From a virus (Duplodnaviria > Heunggongvirae > Uroviricota > Caudoviricetes), in IMG/VR virus record IMGVR_UViG_2537561979_000003: a stretch of 64,000 nt of DNA. One strand, written 5' to 3'. The notes under the pieces are model-generated. The model searched no databases. It had not been told where the DNA came from and saw only the letters and a list, made by a program, of their open reading frames with translations. Both the position numbers and the translations under genes were made by a program. Of this stretch, positions 3,590 through 27,059 are shown one piece after another (the first letter of the stretch is position 1; each line of letters begins with the position of its first letter).

Positions 3590-5509
3590 ATGGAACAGTT
3601 CAATATCAATAAAGGGGTGACGATCAAGCCTGGGCTTGACGTGCTTCCCCCGCCAGTGACTGATGATGAATATCGCGCATTAATGGCCGGTGAGGACCGC
3701 TATCTGATGACGGAATCCAACACCCTGGAGGAAATCGAGGCTACGTTCTTCTATGACACGCCGATCCACTGGTGTGCTACGGATTTACTGGAGGCGATTA
3801 GTTCTACTCGTTTGCAGTTACACCGGACCATGCAGGCATTTGTCCGGGCATTGAACCAGAAGCTGAATGGTACCGGAATCTCTGCGGGGAGTGATAAAAC
3901 GGGGGATGTGGCCCAGAGCGGCGCGCGCGCGATCGGCGGTGCTGAAATTGGCCGGGCACGGAACGTTAACGGGCTGCCGGTCCTGCCAGCCATTATTCCG
4001 CTCAGTGATGGTCAGACTATCAGCATTCTGTTTCATAGCCCGACAGCGGAAAACCGGATCACCAATAGCGATACGCTGGTTGCTTTCCAGTTCTTACTGA
4101 ATAAAAAAGACGTTACTCACACCGTTGCTCCGATGAGTGGACGTGATATGACGCTGGCGCAGGTCACCATGAAACTTGCCAACCTTGCAGAGAAAAACTC
4201 GGCAAAATTCCAGCGTGCGCAGAAGAAGAAAAAAGCCCTGGTTGATGAAATAACCCAACTACAGGCTGACAGTGACCAGAAAGAGGATGCCATGAGCGAC
4301 CTCGCGGATCAGGTGGCAGCGGTAGAAGGGCAGAAGGTAGATCTGGAGCAGAAAATTAACGCTGTTGCATCGGAAGCGGATTCTCTTTATGAAGAGAATG
4401 AGCGTTTGCAGACGGAGATTGATCAGCTCAATCGCACAGGTGGGCGCGATACCATTGATCCAGCGGGGATGACTGGTGGGCACTCGCGCGCGCTGACGGA
4501 TCGCCTTGCCAGTATCAAAAATCGTATGCATATGAACGGGGAAGTGACGCTCAGTAATGGAGCATCAATGAAGCAATTCATTGAGGACGGCGAAGGGTAT
4601 ATCCAGTTAACCGATTCGGATGGCAGCGTGTACATGATCAAGGCTAAATCCATACAGGGTGTGGACATGGCAGATGCGATCGGCAAGCTGTTTAAAGCCT
4701 ATAAAGCGGGTAATGTATCGGAATATCTGGTCCAACCAGAAGAACATAAACCGGAAAACGTCGAACCTGAACCAGCGGAGGATACCGGTAGCTCTTCGCC
4801 TGAACCAGAAGTCTCTGTAGGTGCATATCGATATGCCTTGCAAATGCGTCCGGCGGCCCCTGGCGCAATACCTGAAGGCAACAAAGCAATTCTGCCGCGC
4901 CCTGATGAAGGTGACCCGTATTATGAATATGCACGCTACGGCATTGTTACTTACGATACCCCGCTTTCTGATCAGCAAATGAGTGAGTACGACCTGAAGT
5001 TATTGCCTCGCGAGGATTCTTTCGACTTCCTGGCGAAGACACTTACTAATGGTCCGTTTGGCAAATATGCACAAAAAGCTCTGGAGCTGGCCACCAGCTC
5101 ACCAGACGAGTTCCGCGTAATGCTGAAAACTCAGTTTCAAAAAACTTTCCCCAATATTGCGTTTCCTGGGGGCGCTGGCATCGAGAAAATGGTGCAGAGC
5201 ATGATCAATGCATTGCAGGCCGAAGTCGGTGAGATTACTCAACCAGAACCGGTCCCGGCACAGCCTGATGAAACGGTTAGCGAAGCAGATGCAGAGGCTA
5301 ATAAAGCCATTGAATATCTCAATAGCGTGATGGATATGCAAAGCACTGACATGGCGGAGATCCGTAACGCCCGGGGCAATGTCCGGGAAGCGATTGTTGC
5401 CCTTCAGGCTGCCGGACGTTTTGAGGAAAACGAAGAGCTGGTTAACGGTGCTGCTCGCCACCTGGCTGATCTGCTGGTAGCAATCCAGAAAGCGGGGGTA
5501 GCGGCATGA
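3590..5509 (+). CDS. darA: DarA-like capsid internal / antirestriction protein, 639 aa
   Basis: Size and position match P1 DarA (about 70 kDa); AGGA SD 7 nt upstream; coiled-coil-rich. Confidence 0.65.
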   Translation: MEQFNINKGVTIKPGLDVLPPPVTDDEYRALMAGEDRYLMTESNTLEEIEATFFYDTPIHWCATDLLEAISSTRLQLHRTMQAFVRALNQKLNGTGISAGSDKTGDVAQSGARAIGGAEIGRARNVNGLPVLPAIIPLSDGQTISILFHSPTAENRITNSDTLVAFQFLLNKKDVTHTVAPMSGRDMTLAQVTMKLANLAEKNSAKFQRAQKKKKALVDEITQLQADSDQKEDAMSDLADQVAAVEGQKVDLEQKINAVASEADSLYEENERLQTEIDQLNRTGGRDTIDPAGMTGGHSRALTDRLASIKNRMHMNGEVTLSNGASMKQFIEDGEGYIQLTDSDGSVYMIKAKSIQGVDMADAIGKLFKAYKAGNVSEYLVQPEEHKPENVEPEPAEDTGSSSPEPEVSVGAYRYALQMRPAAPGAIPEGNKAILPRPDEGDPYYEYARYGIVTYDTPLSDQQMSEYDLKLLPREDSFDFLAKTLTNGPFGKYAQKALELATSSPDEFRVMLKTQFQKTFPNIAFPGGAGIEKMVQSMINALQAEVGEITQPEPVPAQPDETVSEADAEANKAIEYLNSVMDMQSTDMAEIRNARGNVREAIVALQAAGRFEENEELVNGAARHLADLLVAIQKAGVAA

Positions 5510-5871
5510 CACTATCAGCTATTGAGTTAATGGACCTCAGCGATAAGTTGGATGCTCTGATGTCCAAAGCGGCTACCGCGAGTGGCATGGAGTTGCTGGA
5601 TATCAGCGATGAAATTGACCAGATCATGCAACAGATGGGGTACGGCGCGTCCGGCGGCAGTAGTGGCGAGGAAAAACAACCTTCGGTACATGATGGTGTG
5701 CCAAAACTGGTTGCTGATTTCCTGGCTGATAAATTCGTCGATCAGAGCACTGATGCATTTATCGGTACGTTACAGGACTTGAGTCAATATGTTGGCACAT
5801 ACATCGACCTGGACCAGGTTAAACAGCACACGGCGGCATGGATAGCCGCCAACATTAAAGAGGCAGCGTGA
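5506..5871 (+). CDS. ddrA: DdrA-like small protein
   Basis: 121-aa ORF overlapping the darA stop; synteny. Confidence 0.5.
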   Translation: MTLSAIELMDLSDKLDALMSKAATASGMELLDISDEIDQIMQQMGYGASGGSSGEEKQPSVHDGVPKLVADFLADKFVDQSTDAFIGTLQDLSQYVGTYIDLDQVKQHTAAWIAANIKEAA

Positions 5872-7218
5872 CATCCTCCACGCCCCGAAGGGCGTGGATT
5901 CCTGCTACGTTCAGGCTGTCGCCTGAATCATTTCGGTGGGTTCCTGCTTCAACGGGCGGCCTGACTGCACCATCCCTCCACAGGCAAGTACGGCGTGCCC
6001 CGCCGCTAAAATGTTACGAGCGCCGTTTACATCGGCGTTCGCTGTATATCCACATACCTGGCATCTGAATTTACTTTGTGACAGGCGATTTTCTTTCGCT
6101 GTATGACCACAGCACGCGCAACGCTGGCTTGTGTACGCTGGCGGAACAGCAAGCACCTGACCGCCACGCCAGAGCTGCTTGTACTCAAGCTGGCGGCGCA
6201 TTTCATACCAGCCCTGATCCAGTATCGAACGGTTTAAACCTGATTTTGCCCGGACATTGCGACCCGGATGACTTATCGTTCCCGCCGCTGACTTTGACAT
6301 GTATTTAACCTTCAAATCCTCAATGACAATCATTGCGTGGTTTTTGCTGACGGTCGTTGTGACTTTGTGAAGGTAGTCCCTGCGGATATTTGCGATACGG
6401 GAATGCAGTCGCTGTATTTTGCGTTTCTGCTTCTGCCAGTTGTTGCTGAATTTGACCTTGCGGCTTAACTGTCGCTGAAGTCTCGCCAGCTTCTTCTGGT
6501 TTTTCTGAAAACTATTTACAGGTTCAAAGACTGTGCCATCTGACAGCGTGGCGAGTTTAGCCACGCCAGCATCCAGTCCGACCATTGATGCTGAAGGGTG
6601 AACAGGAGTGGATACCTCTCTTTCTGTCTGAATACTGATGTACCACTTACCGCAGGACTGGCTGACAGTAACATTTTTCACAATACCCGTGACCTGACGG
6701 CTATTCCGGTAGCGCATCCAGCCAAGTTTCGGCAGAAAAATACGGCTGTTTTCCTGATCGAGCTTAACACCCTGCGGGTAGCGGAATGCATCATTCTGTC
6801 CCCGCTTTTTGAATCGGGGAAAAGCTGCCCGATTCTGGAAGAAGTTTTTGTAAGCCCGCTCAAGGTCTTTCAGTGACTGTTGCAATGGCTGTGAGGGAGA
6901 ATCTTTAAGCCATTCGGTTTCAGTGTCTTTTTTCCACTCAACCAACCAGGAAGCCATTTTCGTGTAAGGGATGTATTTTTTACCGGCCTCATGATTCTCA
7001 TTCTGAAGCGCCAGAGCACGGTTGAAAACGAAACGACAAGCTCCGGCAAAGCGCCTCATTTGACGCTCCTGTTGACCATCTGGTTTTAACCGGAATTTGA
7101 ATGACACCTGTTGTTTCATGTCACTATTTTAAGCAAAAATAGCCGGGAGGAAAACTGTGCCTTATATCCCCACTATGAGGAGCGTAGGGGGCGGCACATT
7201 GGATAAGGCGTAACAGGG
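5872..7218 (-). mobile_element. IS200/IS605-family tnpB-only insertion element (boundaries approximate)
   Basis: Fills the exact gap between the ddrA-like stop (5871) and ddrB-like start (7219); GC-rich hairpin ccacgccc-cgaa-gggcgtgg at 5878-5897 just 3' of tnpB. Confidence 0.5.
5911..7119 (-). CDS. tnpB: TnpB (OrfB), RuvC-like nuclease with C-terminal zinc ribbon
   Basis: 402 aa; conserved blocks ...[17 protein letters not shown]... (RuvC-I Asp) and ...[37 protein letters not shown]... (zinc ribbon plus RuvC-III). Confidence 0.85.
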
Positions 7219-10206
7219 ATGAGCTTAAGCGATCAGGTGGTAATGGCCACCAGCATAGAAACGCTGATCGAGCTGCTAAAGAACCTGCCCGATTATGGGC
7301 GGGTTTCGTATGTGGTGACAGCGAAGGGAGACGAGGTAAAAACAGCGTTTGATATCGTCGATGCCTCAGCTATTTTGGTATCCAATACTCTGGATGGGAA
7401 AATTAATCCTGACTATCCCCAGGAACTTCAGCCGCGCGACCGGACCCGCGCATCCAGCCTTCTTCAGGTTAACCAGATATCCAAAGATTTGCGGCCTGCT
7501 CAGCTTACCGATTCCGGATTATCCAGCCATGGCGCACCGATAATTGGTGAGGACAATGCAGTTGAGTCAGGTAATGGACGTACCATGGGGATCATTAAAG
7601 CCTATCAGGACGGTAATGCGGATCGGTATCGGGAGTACCTGATTGAACATGCGACCGAATTCGGCATACGTACTGAAAAGGTTGAATCAATGACGGCTCC
7701 GGTACTGGTGCGCCGCCGGTTAACGAAGGTTGACCGCGTTCAGTTTGCCAAGGACTCAAATATTTCTGATCTTCAGGAAATGGCAGCCAGTGAAAAGGCT
7801 TTTGTTGATGCCGACAGCATAACACCGGCGATGATGGCGCTGTTTAATCCGTCAGAAAGCGGAGATCTGCTTAGCCGCAGTAATGACGCGTTTATTCGCG
7901 GATTTATGACGCAAGTTGGTGCCACACAGGCGGCTGGCCTTGTAACTGAAGATGGGCGACCAACACGGCAACTTGTAGACCGTATACAAAACGCGATCTT
8001 TGCCAAGGCATATAAGGATGCGCGCCTGGTAAGGATGGTTGCAGAAGAACCTGATCCGGATATGCGTAATGTTCTGACGGCGCTTAATGCGGCAGCCAAT
8101 GATTTTGTCCAGATGCAGGCTTTATCAGGAGAAGCGCACAAGCAGGCTGTGACAACTATTGTTGATGGCATTGAGACAGCGGATAGCCTCGATAAAAAGG
8201 CGCTGGCGGCATTGAAAGATGCGGTAGACCTGGTAAGGCAATCGAAGGAGTCAGGCCAGCATATTACCGATGTTATTGCTCAGGGGGATATGTTCAGCGA
8301 AATGGCCCCGGAAGTGAAAGCACTCGCGTTGTTCATCGTCGCGAATAACCGTAGCGCGAAGCGTATGGCCACCGCCTTTAAGTTGATGGCTCAACGTATC
8401 AATGATGAGTTACAGCACCAGGGCCAGGCGCTGGGGGATATGTTTGGCGGCGGCGATGTGTCGTTACAGGATATCCTTCGCCAGGTATCTCAGGAACTGG
8501 AAAACGAAGGTATGCAAGGGATATCCGGCGGTCTTTTCGAGTCAGCTTCCGGCGGTAGTTACAACGGTGTTGCTCCATATACCAGTTTGCTATTACATCG
8601 AGCATCCGGCATCAAAGACATTATTCATCTGATCAGGCTGCTTTCCCGTAAAGATCCCCAGGATGAACAGCTTGTACAAGTGCTTGCGCATTTTGTTCGA
8701 ATGCCTGTTGCCGACGTGAAAAAATGGTGCCGATTATTCGGTATCAGCAATTCGTTACTTCGCGGCTTGTTAAATCACGCATCCTGCCTTGGGCGCGATG
8801 GCTTTGACGAGATAGCGCAGGCGATAAAAAACGGAGATATGCCACCAGCTATTGACTGGTTTTCCATTCGCCCAACCAGGGTGAAAGCATTCCTTAGCGC
8901 GGCGCATTCGGCATCACCATTGGCAGAAATGGTTCAGAGGTTGTCGCTCATATTCACAGACCATACTGCGTTGGGTGATCTGACTCTGGACGAGATGAAA
9001 GAAGCCTCCATTCAGTGGGCCGATCAACAAAATGAGGTTAACTCAGACTTCTTGCCAGCATTCAGGAAGGCCGTTAGTAAAGCGGATGATGCCCGTGGAA
9101 TTCTGAAGGCATTTAAGGCATTGCAAAGTCGGGTTAATAAACATGTCGGTGATATCGATGGGGTAACGGCGGAAGGCAGGGATATCCTTAAAGAGCACGG
9201 CATAACGCCAGAGTTTATTGATGAGATCAGGACGGATATGCAGCGTGAGGTCGTATCGTCCCTGCAAATTGTAGCCAGAGCGTTGGCGGATGCTAATCCG
9301 AAGAGTGCGGCCATTGTTAACCGGGTTATTGGTGATATTGAAGCATCGGAGGGCATGGGGGCGCTGAAACTCTTCCTTTCGCGAGCGTTTAATCCTAACG
9401 GCAATATTCTCCCTGGCATTATTGGTGAGGCTAAAAGGTATGTCAGTGAAGAAGAACTTGAGCAGCTTGACCAACTACTTAAGCGATTCTCATATAACCC
9501 GCAGACACGCTGGCAAATGAATCAGCGAAGTATGGGTTCGGTCCACGAGAAAGTGTTATCTGCCATGAACAGTGCGATCGCAAACTCATCCGTATCTGAA
9601 GAAAAAGCTCTTGAGTGGGCCGACTCTTTTATCACGGAAGAAGTGGAAGAAGCCCGCGCTGGACAGAATGGTGGGATAGACCTGCGCAAGGAAATGGCTG
9701 ATATTTATCGCCTGACCGGCGGTAAAATTTCGACCTTATCAAAGGTGGTTCACCACCAGGGAAGGGCATATGCAAATCTTAATGGTGTTGTTGCTGTCAA
9801 TTTGAACGATGAAAATGCAAGTGCACTGTGGCACGAGCTGGGTCATCATCTTGAGTACAGTAACCCTGGTTTGTTAGAGAAAGCCCGGTCATTCCTGAAG
9901 GCCAATGTTGAAGGGGATAAGCCATCTTTCGTTAATATCGGTGGGCGTGGCAAGCCTGAATGGTGCTTCAGATCTCGATTGAGTAATATTTATATGGCGA
10001 AGGTATACCCGCCAGCCTCAGTAAGTAACACCGGGAAAATTCGGCAGAAATCACCGACTATTTCCAAAACGTCAGCAACGGAAGTATTCTCTATGGCTCT
10101 TCAGTTGTATCATGACAAAGAGGCCGCTGCCGCATCACTGATGAATGGTGACGGATTGCTGGAACTGTTATTAGGTGTGGCAAAGGAGCTAAATAATGCA
10201 GATTAA
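7219..10206 (+). CDS. ddrB: DdrB-like large protein, 995 aa
   Basis: Large ORF immediately after the ddrA-like gene (interrupted only by the tnpB element); synteny and size. Confidence 0.5.
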   Translation: MSLSDQVVMATSIETLIELLKNLPDYGRVSYVVTAKGDEVKTAFDIVDASAILVSNTLDGKINPDYPQELQPRDRTRASSLLQVNQISKDLRPAQLTDSGLSSHGAPIIGEDNAVESGNGRTMGIIKAYQDGNADRYREYLIEHATEFGIRTEKVESMTAPVLVRRRLTKVDRVQFAKDSNISDLQEMAASEKAFVDADSITPAMMALFNPSESGDLLSRSNDAFIRGFMTQVGATQAAGLVTEDGRPTRQLVDRIQNAIFAKAYKDARLVRMVAEEPDPDMRNVLTALNAAANDFVQMQALSGEAHKQAVTTIVDGIETADSLDKKALAALKDAVDLVRQSKESGQHITDVIAQGDMFSEMAPEVKALALFIVANNRSAKRMATAFKLMAQRINDELQHQGQALGDMFGGGDVSLQDILRQVSQELENEGMQGISGGLFESASGGSYNGVAPYTSLLLHRASGIKDIIHLIRLLSRKDPQDEQLVQVLAHFVRMPVADVKKWCRLFGISNSLLRGLLNHASCLGRDGFDEIAQAIKNGDMPPAIDWFSIRPTRVKAFLSAAHSASPLAEMVQRLSLIFTDHTALGDLTLDEMKEASIQWADQQNEVNSDFLPAFRKAVSKADDARGILKAFKALQSRVNKHVGDIDGVTAEGRDILKEHGITPEFIDEIRTDMQREVVSSLQIVARALADANPKSAAIVNRVIGDIEASEGMGALKLFLSRAFNPNGNILPGIIGEAKRYVSEEELEQLDQLLKRFSYNPQTRWQMNQRSMGSVHEKVLSAMNSAIANSSVSEEKALEWADSFITEEVEEARAGQNGGIDLRKEMADIYRLTGGKISTLSKVVHHQGRAYANLNGVVAVNLNDENASALWHELGHHLEYSNPGLLEKARSFLKANVEGDKPSFVNIGGRGKPEWCFRSRLSNIYMAKVYPPASVSNTGKIRQKSPTISKTSATEVFSMALQLYHDKEAAAASLMNGDGLLELLLGVAKELNNAD

Positions 10207-13704: not shown

Positions 13705-16435
<2,731 letters not shown>

Positions 16436-25534: not shown

Positions 25535-25595
25535 GGTAGATATTTTGTTAATCGCGAATCACATTTTTTCACTTCAGTACCTGTGTGCTATACTC

Positions 25596-25668
25596 CTTCT
25601 TGATTGATTGGATGCGGAATACAAACCCGCTCTTTTGTGCAGCCTGGCTCCTTGCCAGGCTTTTTTTA
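25596..25668 (+). ncRNA. candidate small RNA (promoter-like element to intrinsic terminator)
   Basis: TATACT -10 at 25589-25594 with TTCACT 15 bp upstream; terminator agcctggc-tcctt-gccaggct plus T7 at 25641-25668; the 5' end carries TGATTGATTGG. Confidence 0.25.
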
Positions 25669-25977
25669 TTTCATCATGGAAGCTGTTAACGCTTTGGATC
25701 TTGCTGAACTGATTGAAAGGGCATTGTTTACCTTACCCAGGAGTTCGCCAAATTCCACCATCACTCTAGTAAGCCCGCGCCGCGCTTCCTCCTCCGTTGC
25801 ATTCATCACAAAATGTTCAGCACTCCGCATGCTTTTAACGGGGAACGCAACAGATATCGAGTCGATATCAGGCATCCTATCGCTCAACTTTACGGTGACA
25901 ATGACAGATGGTGACTGAATTTGAGAGCTTACAGACAGCACCACATATTTTCCGTCTATTTTGAAATCCTTCCGCAT
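25666..25977 (-). CDS. hypothetical protein between ref and cre (cra/hxr region)
   Basis: 103-aa ORF with an operator-like site upstream. Confidence 0.4.
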   Translation of the reverse strand: MRKDFKIDGKYVVLSVSSQIQSPSVIVTVKLSDRMPDIDSISVAFPVKSMRSAEHFVMNATEEEARRGLTRVMVEFGELLGKVNNALSISSARSKALTASMMK

Positions 25978-25993
25978 GTGTCATCATAAATAT

Positions 25994-26010
25994 CAAATAA
26001 TTAGAGCAAT
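25994..26010 (-). promoter_or_regulatory. C1 operator-like site
   Basis: Minus strand ATTGCTCTAATTATTTG. Confidence 0.55.
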
Positions 26011-26027
26011 CAGTTGCAAATAAACGG

Positions 26028-27059
26028 CTAATCGCCATCTTCCAGCAGGCGCACCATTGCCCCTGTTTCACTATCCAGGTTACGGATATAGTTCATGACA
26101 ATATTTACATTGGTCCAGCCACCAGCTTGCATGATCTCCGGTATTGAAACTCCAGCGCGGGCCATATCTCGCGCGGCTCCGACACGGGCACTGTGTCCAG
26201 ACCAGGCCAGGTATCTCTGACCAGAGTCATCCTTAGCGCCGTAAATCAATCGATGAGTTGCTTCAAAAATCCCTTCCAGGGCGCGAGTTGATAGCTGGCT
26301 GGTGGCAGATGGCGCGGCAACACCATTTTTTCTGACCCGGCAAAACAGGTAGTTATTCGGATCATCAGCCACACCAGAGACAGAAATCCATCGCTCGACC
26401 AGTTTAGTTACCCCCAGGCTAAGTGCCTTCTCTACACCTGCGGTGCTAACCAGTGTTTTCGTTCTGCCAATATGGATTAACATTCTCCCACCGTCAGTAC
26501 GTGAGATATCTTTAACCCTGATCCTGGCAATTTCGGCTATACGTAACAGGGTGTTATAAGCAATCCCCAGAAATGCCAGATTCCGTATATCCTGGCAGCG
26601 ATCGCTATTTTCCATGAGTGAACGAACCTGGTCGAAATCAGTGCGTTCGAACGCCAATGCCTGTTTTGCACGTTCACCGGCATCAACGTTTTCTTTTCGA
26701 ATCCGCCGCATGACCAGTGAAACAGCATTGCTGTCACTTGGTCGTGGCAGCCCGGACCGACGATGAAGCATGTTTAGCTGGCCCAAATGTTGCTGGATAG
26801 TTTTTACTGCCAGACCGCGCGCCTGAAGATATAGAAGATAATCGCGAACATCTTCAGGTTCTGCGGGAAACCACTTCCGGTTATTCAACTTGCACCATGC
26901 CGCCCACGACCGGCAAACGGACAGAAGCATTTTCCAGGTATGCTCAGAAAACGCCTGGCGATCCCTGAACATGTCCATCAGGTTCTTGCGAACCTCATCA
27001 CTCGTTGCATCGACCGGTAATGCAGGCAAATTTTGGTGTACGGTCAGTAAATTGGACAT
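26028..27059 (-). CDS. cre: Cre site-specific tyrosine recombinase, 343 aa
   Basis: MSNLLTVHQNLPALPVDATSDEVRKNLMDMFRDRQAFSEHTWKMLLSVCRSWAAWCKLNNRKWFPAEPEDVRDYLLYLQARGLAVKTIQQHLGQLNMLHRRSGLPRPSDSNAVSLVMRRIRKENVDAGERAK... ending MVRLLEDGD matches Cre. Confidence 0.98.
   Translation of the reverse strand: MSNLLTVHQNLPALPVDATSDEVRKNLMDMFRDRQAFSEHTWKMLLSVCRSWAAWCKLNNRKWFPAEPEDVRDYLLYLQARGLAVKTIQQHLGQLNMLHRRSGLPRPSDSNAVSLVMRRIRKENVDAGERAKQALAFERTDFDQVRSLMENSDRCQDIRNLAFLGIAYNTLLRIAEIARIRVKDISRTDGGRMLIHIGRTKTLVSTAGVEKALSLGVTKLVERWISVSGVADDPNNYLFCRVRKNGVAAPSATSQLSTRALEGIFEATHRLIYGAKDDSGQRYLAWSGHSARVGAARDMARAGVSIPEIMQAGGWTNVNIVMNYIRNLDSETGAMVRLLEDGD

Follow-up and report, generated by a model that had tools for sequence, protein, structure and literature searches.

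The anti-restriction genes ddrA and ddrB of a P1-like phage-plasmid are separated, in the 64,000-nucleotide (nt) stretch of DNA from IMG/VR record IMGVR_UViG_2537561979_000003 (hereafter the window, meaning that whole stretch), by a tnpA-less, IS609-like element of the IS200/IS605 family that occupies positions 5868..7202 (1335 bp) on the minus strand. Taken as a whole, it very probably represents an IS609-type element without tnpA that inserted once at this junction, has kept an intact TnpB together with its omega-RNA, carries a guide directed at the empty version of the same junction, and is probably immobile. The IS609 name rests on about 95% DNA identity to RefSeq-annotated IS609 copies over element positions 100-1334 only; over this stretch, chromosomal IS609/insQ copies with about that identity occur in 5015 of 5426 complete Escherichia coli genomes. 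An original prediction, made from the letters of the window, had recognized a tnpB-only IS200/IS605 element here. With the ends now fixed against the empty junction of P1, and the insert recognized as tnpA-less and IS609-like, that reading is supported apart from small corrections of coordinates and extent.

The ends were placed by alignment with P1, whose empty junction reads GAGGCAGC/ATAAGGCG, while the window reads GAGGCAGC[GTGACATCC...CACATTGG]ATAAGGCG. P1 matches the flanks only, in two matches that lie 366 bp apart in P1, and its junction is cleanly interrupted, with zero bases duplicated and no terminal inverted repeats. Along the element's own strand the order is ...GCCTTAT/CCAATGTGCC...(left end)...tnpB...GGAGGATGTCAC/GCTGCCTCTTTAATGT. 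The extent first proposed, 5872-7218, was right in its location between ddrA and ddrB but not in its ends, the true element starting 4 nt further left and stopping 16 nt short of the proposed boundary. Adjoining the left end is TTAT (7203..7206, minus strand; ATAA on the plus strand), the target or target-adjacent motif (TAM). It is shared with other IS609 copies: besides the window, four chromosomal IS609 copies have TTAT 5′ of the left end, and of three further plasmid copies without tnpA, two have it and one has a TTAC-like sequence. Published IS609 cleavage sites are TTAT on the left and TCAA on the right (Venturini et al. 2019, PMC6906374). An assembly artefact is ruled out by the recurrence of the same junction in many independent records, namely RCS47, SJ46, further plasmids and 15 IMG/VR contigs in which the occupied junction is exact. 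The 1701-bp stretch at 5700-7400 of this P1-like phage-plasmid matches RCS47 at 99.9% and SJ46 at 96.5% identity; it recurs at 99.9-100% in many plasmids of about 95 kb from E. coli and Salmonella, and the records holding it at 96.5-100% comprise RCS47, SJ46 and 72 plasmid records.

The insertion replaces the stop codon of ddrA. Positions 7204-7206 are the displaced original TAA, and the right end overlaps the last 4 nt of the gene, so that the P1 ending GCA GCA TAA becomes GCA GCG TGA in the window. Because the right end supplies both the last base (G) of the final sense codon and a new TGA (GCA to GCG, TAA to TGA), the DdrA protein is unchanged. At both insertion sites seen in P1-like plasmids (window, 5868-5871; locus L009 of plasmid pE148-2, 3801-3804), the TAM complement ATAA includes the TAA stop codon of whichever gene converges on tnpB; the right-end TCAA or TCAC yields a replacement TGA on the other strand, leaving the ddrA product unchanged and that of pro changed by one residue. 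A right end of this kind offers a means of landing on a stop codon without altering the neighboring protein.

The single gene of the element, tnpB (5911..7119, minus strand), is an intact open reading frame (ORF) of 402 codons, supported by the ORF list, Pfam, NCBIfam and alignment with ISDra2. As had been proposed, it runs antisense to the dar genes: darA, ddrA and ddrB all lie on the plus strand, and tnpB fills the ddrA-ddrB gap on the opposite one. The proposed RuvC and zinc-ribbon architecture is borne out by the Pfam domains HTH_OrfB_IS605, OrfB_IS605 (RuvC) and Cas12f1-like_TNB (zinc ribbon), by an NCBIfam guided_TnpB score of 392.7 bits against a cut-off of 100, and by a full-length alignment with the ISDra2 TnpB structures 8BF8, 8EXA and 8H1J (E = 9e-52). 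On that alignment the catalytic triad D183, E267 and D363 coincides with that of ISDra2, as do the zinc-ribbon CxxC pairs C334/C337 and C353/C356. Ten residues are listed as functionally critical (PMC12781874), and all ten are present here at an offset of +2: the cysteines, the aspartates and E267 by alignment, and N33, G181 and L269 as read off the translation of the window gene. The protein is thus predicted to be an intact RNA-guided DNA endonuclease. Fragments of tnpB also occur in other phages, with 647 bp at 95.8% identity in filamentous phage If1 (U02303.1 / NC_001954.1, 6409-7055; annotated as ORF348/hypothetical) and 291 bp at 96.6% in the 254-kb Aeromonas phage AP1 (MT713136.1, 238144-238434); both may be partial IS609 insertions or contamination.

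Across the 3′ end of tnpB and the right end (RE) of the element lies a conserved RNA structure, the predicted omega-RNA (reRNA) scaffold at 5868..6037 (minus strand), with its core at 5868-6014. Eighty related loci were assembled, one genome per species, and the last 180 nt up to the RE terminus were aligned from 46 copies. RNAalifold predicts nine helices with 46 pairs in total, of which 16 show compensatory changes, and the support exceeds that in shuffled alignments: 96.5% of cells are paired compared with 92.0±0.3, 16 pairs change on both sides compared with 8.0±1.6 (0 of 500 shuffles reach 16), and 99 cells show such changes compared with 30. Sliding the partners by 1-3 columns as a control lowers pairing to 38.8-48.1% and the both-side-change pairs to 6-11. 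Examples of covariation are the pairs 52-58 (GC 26, AU 19) and 150-186 (AU 24, GC 20), together with the RE-hairpin pair 198-215 (CG 15, AU 13, UG 12, UA 2). Beside the guide junction, 6009-6014 pairs with 5871-5876 in a long-range helix, and the window sequence is able to form every pair of the family consensus. Synonymous divergence of tnpB falls to 0.05 in its last 138 nt, compared with 0.19 in nt 1-1050. Together, the conserved structure and the low 3′ synonymous divergence delimit a scaffold at about 5868-6014/6037, of which the RE hairpin is the last stem, and on these computational grounds the structure fits an omega-RNA.

The RE hairpin, TCCACGCCC-TTCG-GGGCGTGGA at 5877..5898 (minus strand), is itself a robust fold, with a 9-bp stem, a DNA folding energy of -13.7 kcal/mol and z = -3.3 (0 of 200 shuffles as good), and it is supported by both fold and covariation. 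This is the GC-rich hairpin that had been put at 5872-5910 as the site of the guide RNA; the hairpin stands, but not as the full extent of the RNA, whose scaffold spans about 150-170 nt and reaches into tnpB. A single-sequence fold of 5852-6060 is also stable (z = -3.4), and the alignment fold is preferred because the single-sequence fold differs in detail from the family consensus. Beyond the hairpin, the element ends in GGAGGATGTCAC (5868-5879, minus strand). Among 59 right ends extracted from relatives, 58 finish in GGAGGATGTCAA (TCAA) and then pass into unrelated flanks, the exception, L045, ending in TCAC. In the loop of the hairpin (5887-5890), the window has TTCG where SJ46 (L010), read on the same strand, has CGAA, and the stem also differs by one change; the inversion (alignment columns 187-195) resembles a flip of the hairpin more than a set of point mutations.

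In the established model of TnpB action, reportedly set out in Karvelis 2021, Altae-Tran 2021 and Meers 2023, the guide is the 16-20 nt directly 3′ of the right end, and its target is preceded by the TAM. In the window this rule designates as the predicted guide segment GCTGCCTCTTTAATGT(TGGC), in the ddrA-side flank at 5848..5867 (minus strand; 16-20 nt, the 16-nt version being 5852-5867). The empty site of P1 reads TTAT/GCTGCCTCTTTAATGTTGGC, and the flank GCTGCCTCTTTAATGT there stands directly 3′ of TTAT. Within the window, the only perfect guide match is the flank itself, preceded by the RE and not by TTAT, and one further match carries two mismatches and no TTAT. Occupied and empty sites thus form a clean natural pair from which the ends, the TAM (TTAT) and the guide can be assigned for the E. 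coli IS609 TnpB. Empty junctions are also the more numerous: a 26-mer across the empty junction occurs exactly in 57 IMG/VR contigs compared with 15 for the occupied one, and among 469 P1-like records of PLSDB the junction is intact in 356 and split in about 86. Uninterrupted in P1 and most of its relatives, the junction does not carry the insert as a native feature of all P1 relatives; roughly 20% of P1-like genomes have the element, and in the others its predicted target is present. A terminator-like hairpin with a T-rich tail at 5831-5851 (minus strand) starts 1 nt past the end of the 16-nt guide and could mark the 3′ end of the guide RNA; such sites are not above chance in this region.

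These features can be assembled into a mechanism. An IS609-type element lacking tnpA very probably entered on a single occasion, in single-stranded form, 3′ of a TTAT overlapping the ddrA stop, and has since been inherited and recombined among P1-like plasmids. The omega-RNA scaffold, encoded across the tnpB 3′ end and the RE, would be bound by TnpB, and its transcript would run from the RE into ddrA-side DNA, making GCUGCCUCUUUAAUGU(UGGC), 16-20 nt long, the guide. The complex would then cut TTAT followed by GCTGCCTCTTTAATGT, a combination found only at the uninterrupted ddrA-ddrB junctions of P1 and its relatives, and the occupied site would be spared because the RE, not TTAT, precedes the target. 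Transposition, finally, would have been lost with the absence of tnpA, the degeneration of the left-end hairpin and the change of the RE cleavage site from TCAA to TCAC.

A single insertion and lost mobility are suggested in part by the left end (LE; 7120..7202, minus strand), which is related to the IS609 LE and comprises a diverged subterminal hairpin (7168-7190), separated from tnpB by a short spacer rich in AT. The canonical IS609 hairpin CCCCGTCC-TTCA-GGGCGGGG is here CCCC(T)AC-10 nt-GTGGGG, with 6 bp plus a bulge, a 10-nt loop and a fold of only z = -1.3, unlike the right-end hairpin; the AAAA 5′ of the canonical hairpin is replaced by CCGC. Under a recognition rule reportedly established for IS608 (Barabas et al. 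2008), the AAAA beside the hairpin pairs with the target, which in the IS609 case is TTAT. At the opposite end, C replaces the terminal A, giving TCAC in both the window and SJ46. This LE variant was counted in 64 E. coli genomes, in 75 plasmids of PLSDB, and in 12 contigs from IMG/VR and 5 from metagenomes; every occurrence examined shares the identical ddrB-side flank, placing it at the ddrA-ddrB site only. A full-length element combining tnpA with this variant was found in none of the E. coli genomes, PLSDB, IMG/VR or metagenomes. Such confinement points to a single insertion at ddrA-ddrB without further transposition. As the original prediction held, there is no tnpA in the 64-kb window by tblastn with IS609 TnpA (best E = 0.023), nor is there a second tnpB in it; lacking a Y1 (HUH) TnpA, the insert is a non-autonomous derivative and not a complete insertion sequence. 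The best tblastn match itself, at 15956-16087 (plus strand), covers IS609 TnpA residues 63-101 at 34% identity and was judged to be chance. Taken together, the ends and the missing transposase suggest that the element probably no longer transposes.

Its wider lineage has evidently been more mobile. The spacer TTTTTG(C/T)TTAAAATAG (about 25 nt) is conserved in the tnpA-less relatives L007, L008, L009, L011 and L034, which share a layout of LE, spacer of about 25 nt and ATG, and are scattered over different sites in chromosomes and other plasmids. The same layout at many sites argues that the tnpA-less lineage moved after the loss of tnpA, presumably mobilized by TnpA in trans. Within the spacer, TAAAAT (7126..7131, minus strand) is conceivably a -10 box for tnpB.

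Comparison of the window tnpB with eight relatives gives ratios of nonsynonymous to synonymous divergence (dN/dS) of 0.12-0.31, all nine aligned ORFs being intact, and a value of 0.19 against SJ46 at the same site; by this measure tnpB is under purifying selection. Copies at the ddrA-ddrB site (L149-L161, SJ46 and the window) fall into about four haplotype groups that are 18-51 substitutions apart. Their differences are patchy, with patches matching chromosomal IS609 copies, except that at least some of those in SJ46 do not. Such patchiness points to gene conversion of the plasmid copy with IS609-family copies of the host or elsewhere.

Several observations weigh against the interpretation given here. 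A scan of 5400-7600 for sigma-70 promoters and terminators returned counts not above those of shuffled sequence, with nothing above chance upstream of tnpB and TAAAAT not flagged, so that neither a tnpB promoter nor a terminator that would explain polarity on ddrB can be claimed. Expression, RNA processing, cleavage activity and any effect on ddrB are predictions from sequence. Most same-site copies are more than 99% identical, and purifying selection since the insertion is therefore not measurable; part of the dN/dS signal stems from patches acquired from other IS609 copies, so that it is only partly specific to the ddrA-ddrB site. Immobility leans on recognition rules for IS608, an element other than IS609, and the distant relative L045 also ends in TCAC. 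In an Rfam scan of 5600-7400, the minus-strand matches to HgcC (5855-5978; 22.6 bits, gathering threshold 50), sot0042 (5877-6038; 17.8 bits, threshold 88) and RAGATH-18 (5941-5984; 28.1 bits, threshold 44.9) all fall below their gathering thresholds, although they lie at the expected place, the tnpB 3′ end, and on the expected strand; they are a pointer, the covariation test being the evidence. These three families are known relatives of TnpB-associated RNAs.

Some of these same points would suit an inert relic, a recent neutral insertion whose tnpB is intact merely for want of time to decay and whose protein and RNA are idle. The window has no tnpA, the LE looks degenerate and the RE cleavage site is altered; the scan detected no promoter for tnpB, and with most copies about 99.9% identical no selection after insertion is visible. 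Such an account has to accommodate, however, that all 11 complete same-site copies, from the window, SJ46 and nine loci of IMG/VR, share a length of exactly 1335 bp despite up to 51 substitutions, that the tnpB ORF, checked in the window and SJ46, is intact in both at the dN/dS given above, and that the RNA scaffold is fully preserved in the window. An idle relic is therefore a credible but unlikely description.

A larger claim, that the element, with no transposase and a dead left end, persists and spreads through P1-like phage-plasmids by means of RNA-guided homing or competition, is put forward only tentatively and is, in our judgment, also rather unlikely. The TnpB-omega-RNA complex would cut empty junctions, present in about 80% of P1-like genomes, whenever a genome of that kind reached the same cell through superinfection or transfer of a plasmid; the element would then be copied in as the break was repaired from the occupied copy, or the cut would disable an incompatible rival. 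Consistent with this, the target is perfectly conserved in the 57 IMG/VR contigs with an empty junction. The element is identical (0 of 1335 positions differing) in the window, L151 and L156, whose flanks are about 2% apart beyond about ±170 bp. Among IMG/VR contigs, occupied flanks are not monophyletic, several being nearer to empty-site flanks than to other occupied ones. An identical element in diverged flanks is compatible with the tracts that conversion by double-strand-break repair would leave. A comparison in 250-bp bins shows, though, that other near-identical blocks of similar size occur elsewhere in these mosaic genomes, and for that reason homing is compatible with the data and not evidenced by them. 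P1 and RCS47-like plasmids would make a tractable test of homing by a transposase-less TnpB or of competition between phage-plasmids.

Continued mobility is less probable still. Here the IS609 TnpA of a host would excise and reinsert the element in trans, and TnpB would restore it after excision. In its favor, related copies without tnpA that share the layout of LE, spacer and tnpB are found at many sites in plasmids and chromosomes, and intact IS609 tnpA is present in some E. coli, for example O157. Yet the LE variant of the window is never seen away from the ddrA-ddrB site, its hairpin and the four bases expected to pair with TTAT depart from canonical IS609, and many host tnpA copies are pseudogenes. 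A domesticated TnpB, whether a nuclease-dead TldR-like regulator or an antisense transcription unit modulating the dar operon, is very unlikely: tnpB does lie antisense to that operon, and a transcript reading out of the element would be antisense to the 3′ end of ddrA, but the RuvC D-E-D triad and zinc cysteines are intact in a protein of full length relative to ISDra2, the gene is about 95% identical to ordinary IS609 tnpB, and about 80% of P1-like plasmids do without it. Classification as TldR or another nuclease-dead TnpB was rejected on the intact catalytic residues, the full length and two recognizable ends, and classification as a PATE (an ORF-less IS200/IS605 derivative) on the intact 402-aa tnpB between those ends. 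An IS609-type element that inserted once and retained TnpB and its guide RNA thus remains the preferred explanation.

The dar genes flank the element. Upstream lies darA (3590-5509, plus strand), identified by Pfam DarA_N/DarA_C and the NCBIfam anti_RE_DarA equivalog, followed by ddrA (5506-5871, plus strand), assigned by its match to P1 ddrA and closed by the TGA at 5869-5871. Beyond the element, ddrB (7219-10206, plus strand; Pfam ddrB-ParB, 4.2e-39) is intact and keeps its native 12-nt upstream spacer in alignment with P1. The original prediction held that the insertion may polarize ddrB expression. Both ddrA and ddrB ORFs are intact, as is the ribosome-binding region of ddrB, and the scan found no convincing intrinsic terminator on the plus strand within the element. 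Within the tnpB 5′ end and LE, a promoter-like ATGACA, 18 nt, TATTTT at 7101-7130 (plus strand) points toward ddrB and could drive it independently of the dar promoter; in the scan such matches are no commoner than chance. A 132-aa ORF (7773-8171, minus strand), antisense within ddrB, has the size and position of P1 iddB.

The insertion at ddrA-ddrB is already annotated and published, and the element is a common one of IS609 type. RCS47, SJ46 and dozens of plasmids annotate it as insQ, "transposase IS605" or "RNA-guided endonuclease TnpB family protein," and plasmid pSvP1 was described as carrying an "IS609-like sequence (25,544-26,881)" (Venturini et al. 2019, PMC6906374). In pSvP1 the copy is flanked by homologues of ddrB and ddrA, and the stretch aligns colinearly, at 98.2% and free of gaps, with window 5500-7600; together with those of RCS47 and SJ46 this copy represents the same element at the same site, with no structural difference from the window. 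These reports predate or omit TnpB as an RNA-guided nuclease, its guide and its target. A literature search found no paper on the guide or target of this copy or on TnpB function in P1-like phage-plasmids, and nothing specific on IS609 TnpB activity; an IS609 TnpB is listed among purified candidates (PMC12781874).

IS609 proper (E. coli insP/insQ, ydcM locus), with the divergent tnpA-tnpB of the IS605 type, shares with the window the RE GGAGGATGTCA- and its hairpin, the TTAT target and insertion without duplication. In a full IS609, such as the O157 locus L005, a divergent 143-aa tnpA starts 7 nt upstream of tnpB and the LE lies beyond the tnpA 3′ end, whereas the window lacks the 432-nt tnpA and its flanks. 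The first ~100 nt of the window element (LE and first 5-6 codons) are also much more diverged, and its last base is C, not A. A closer parallel in arrangement comes from the P1-like plasmids pJIE250-3 and pE148-2, in which a tnpA-less IS609-type insert lies between pro and the lysis operon (lyz). There, too, TTAT overlaps the stop of the gene converging on tnpB and the RE provides a new TGA, but the site differs and the LE hairpin is canonical, unlike that of the window copy. The window itself holds the empty version of that site at 13705-13724 (plus strand), where TTAT is followed by TTAAACGGATTGATTG, one base off the guide expected from the pE148-2 copy (L009); this TTAT overlaps the stop of a 349-aa, pro-like head-processing ORF (13705..14754, minus strand).

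ISDra2 TnpB of Deinococcus radiodurans (8EXA, 8BF8, 8H1J) has the same domain order and the same positions of the D/E/D and CxxC residues, and its RNA likewise lies at the tnpB 3′ end and RE with a long-range helix near the guide junction. It belongs to another IS group, with a TAM of TTGAT as opposed to TTAT here. Phage homing endonuclease genes differ from the window element in that its targeting is predicted to be RNA-guided, and in that mosaic blocks also occur elsewhere in these genomes. They resemble it in pattern, an identical element with about 170 bp on each side being set within flanks about 2% different, and in the nature of the target, which for homing genes is the allele without the nuclease gene, as is predicted here.

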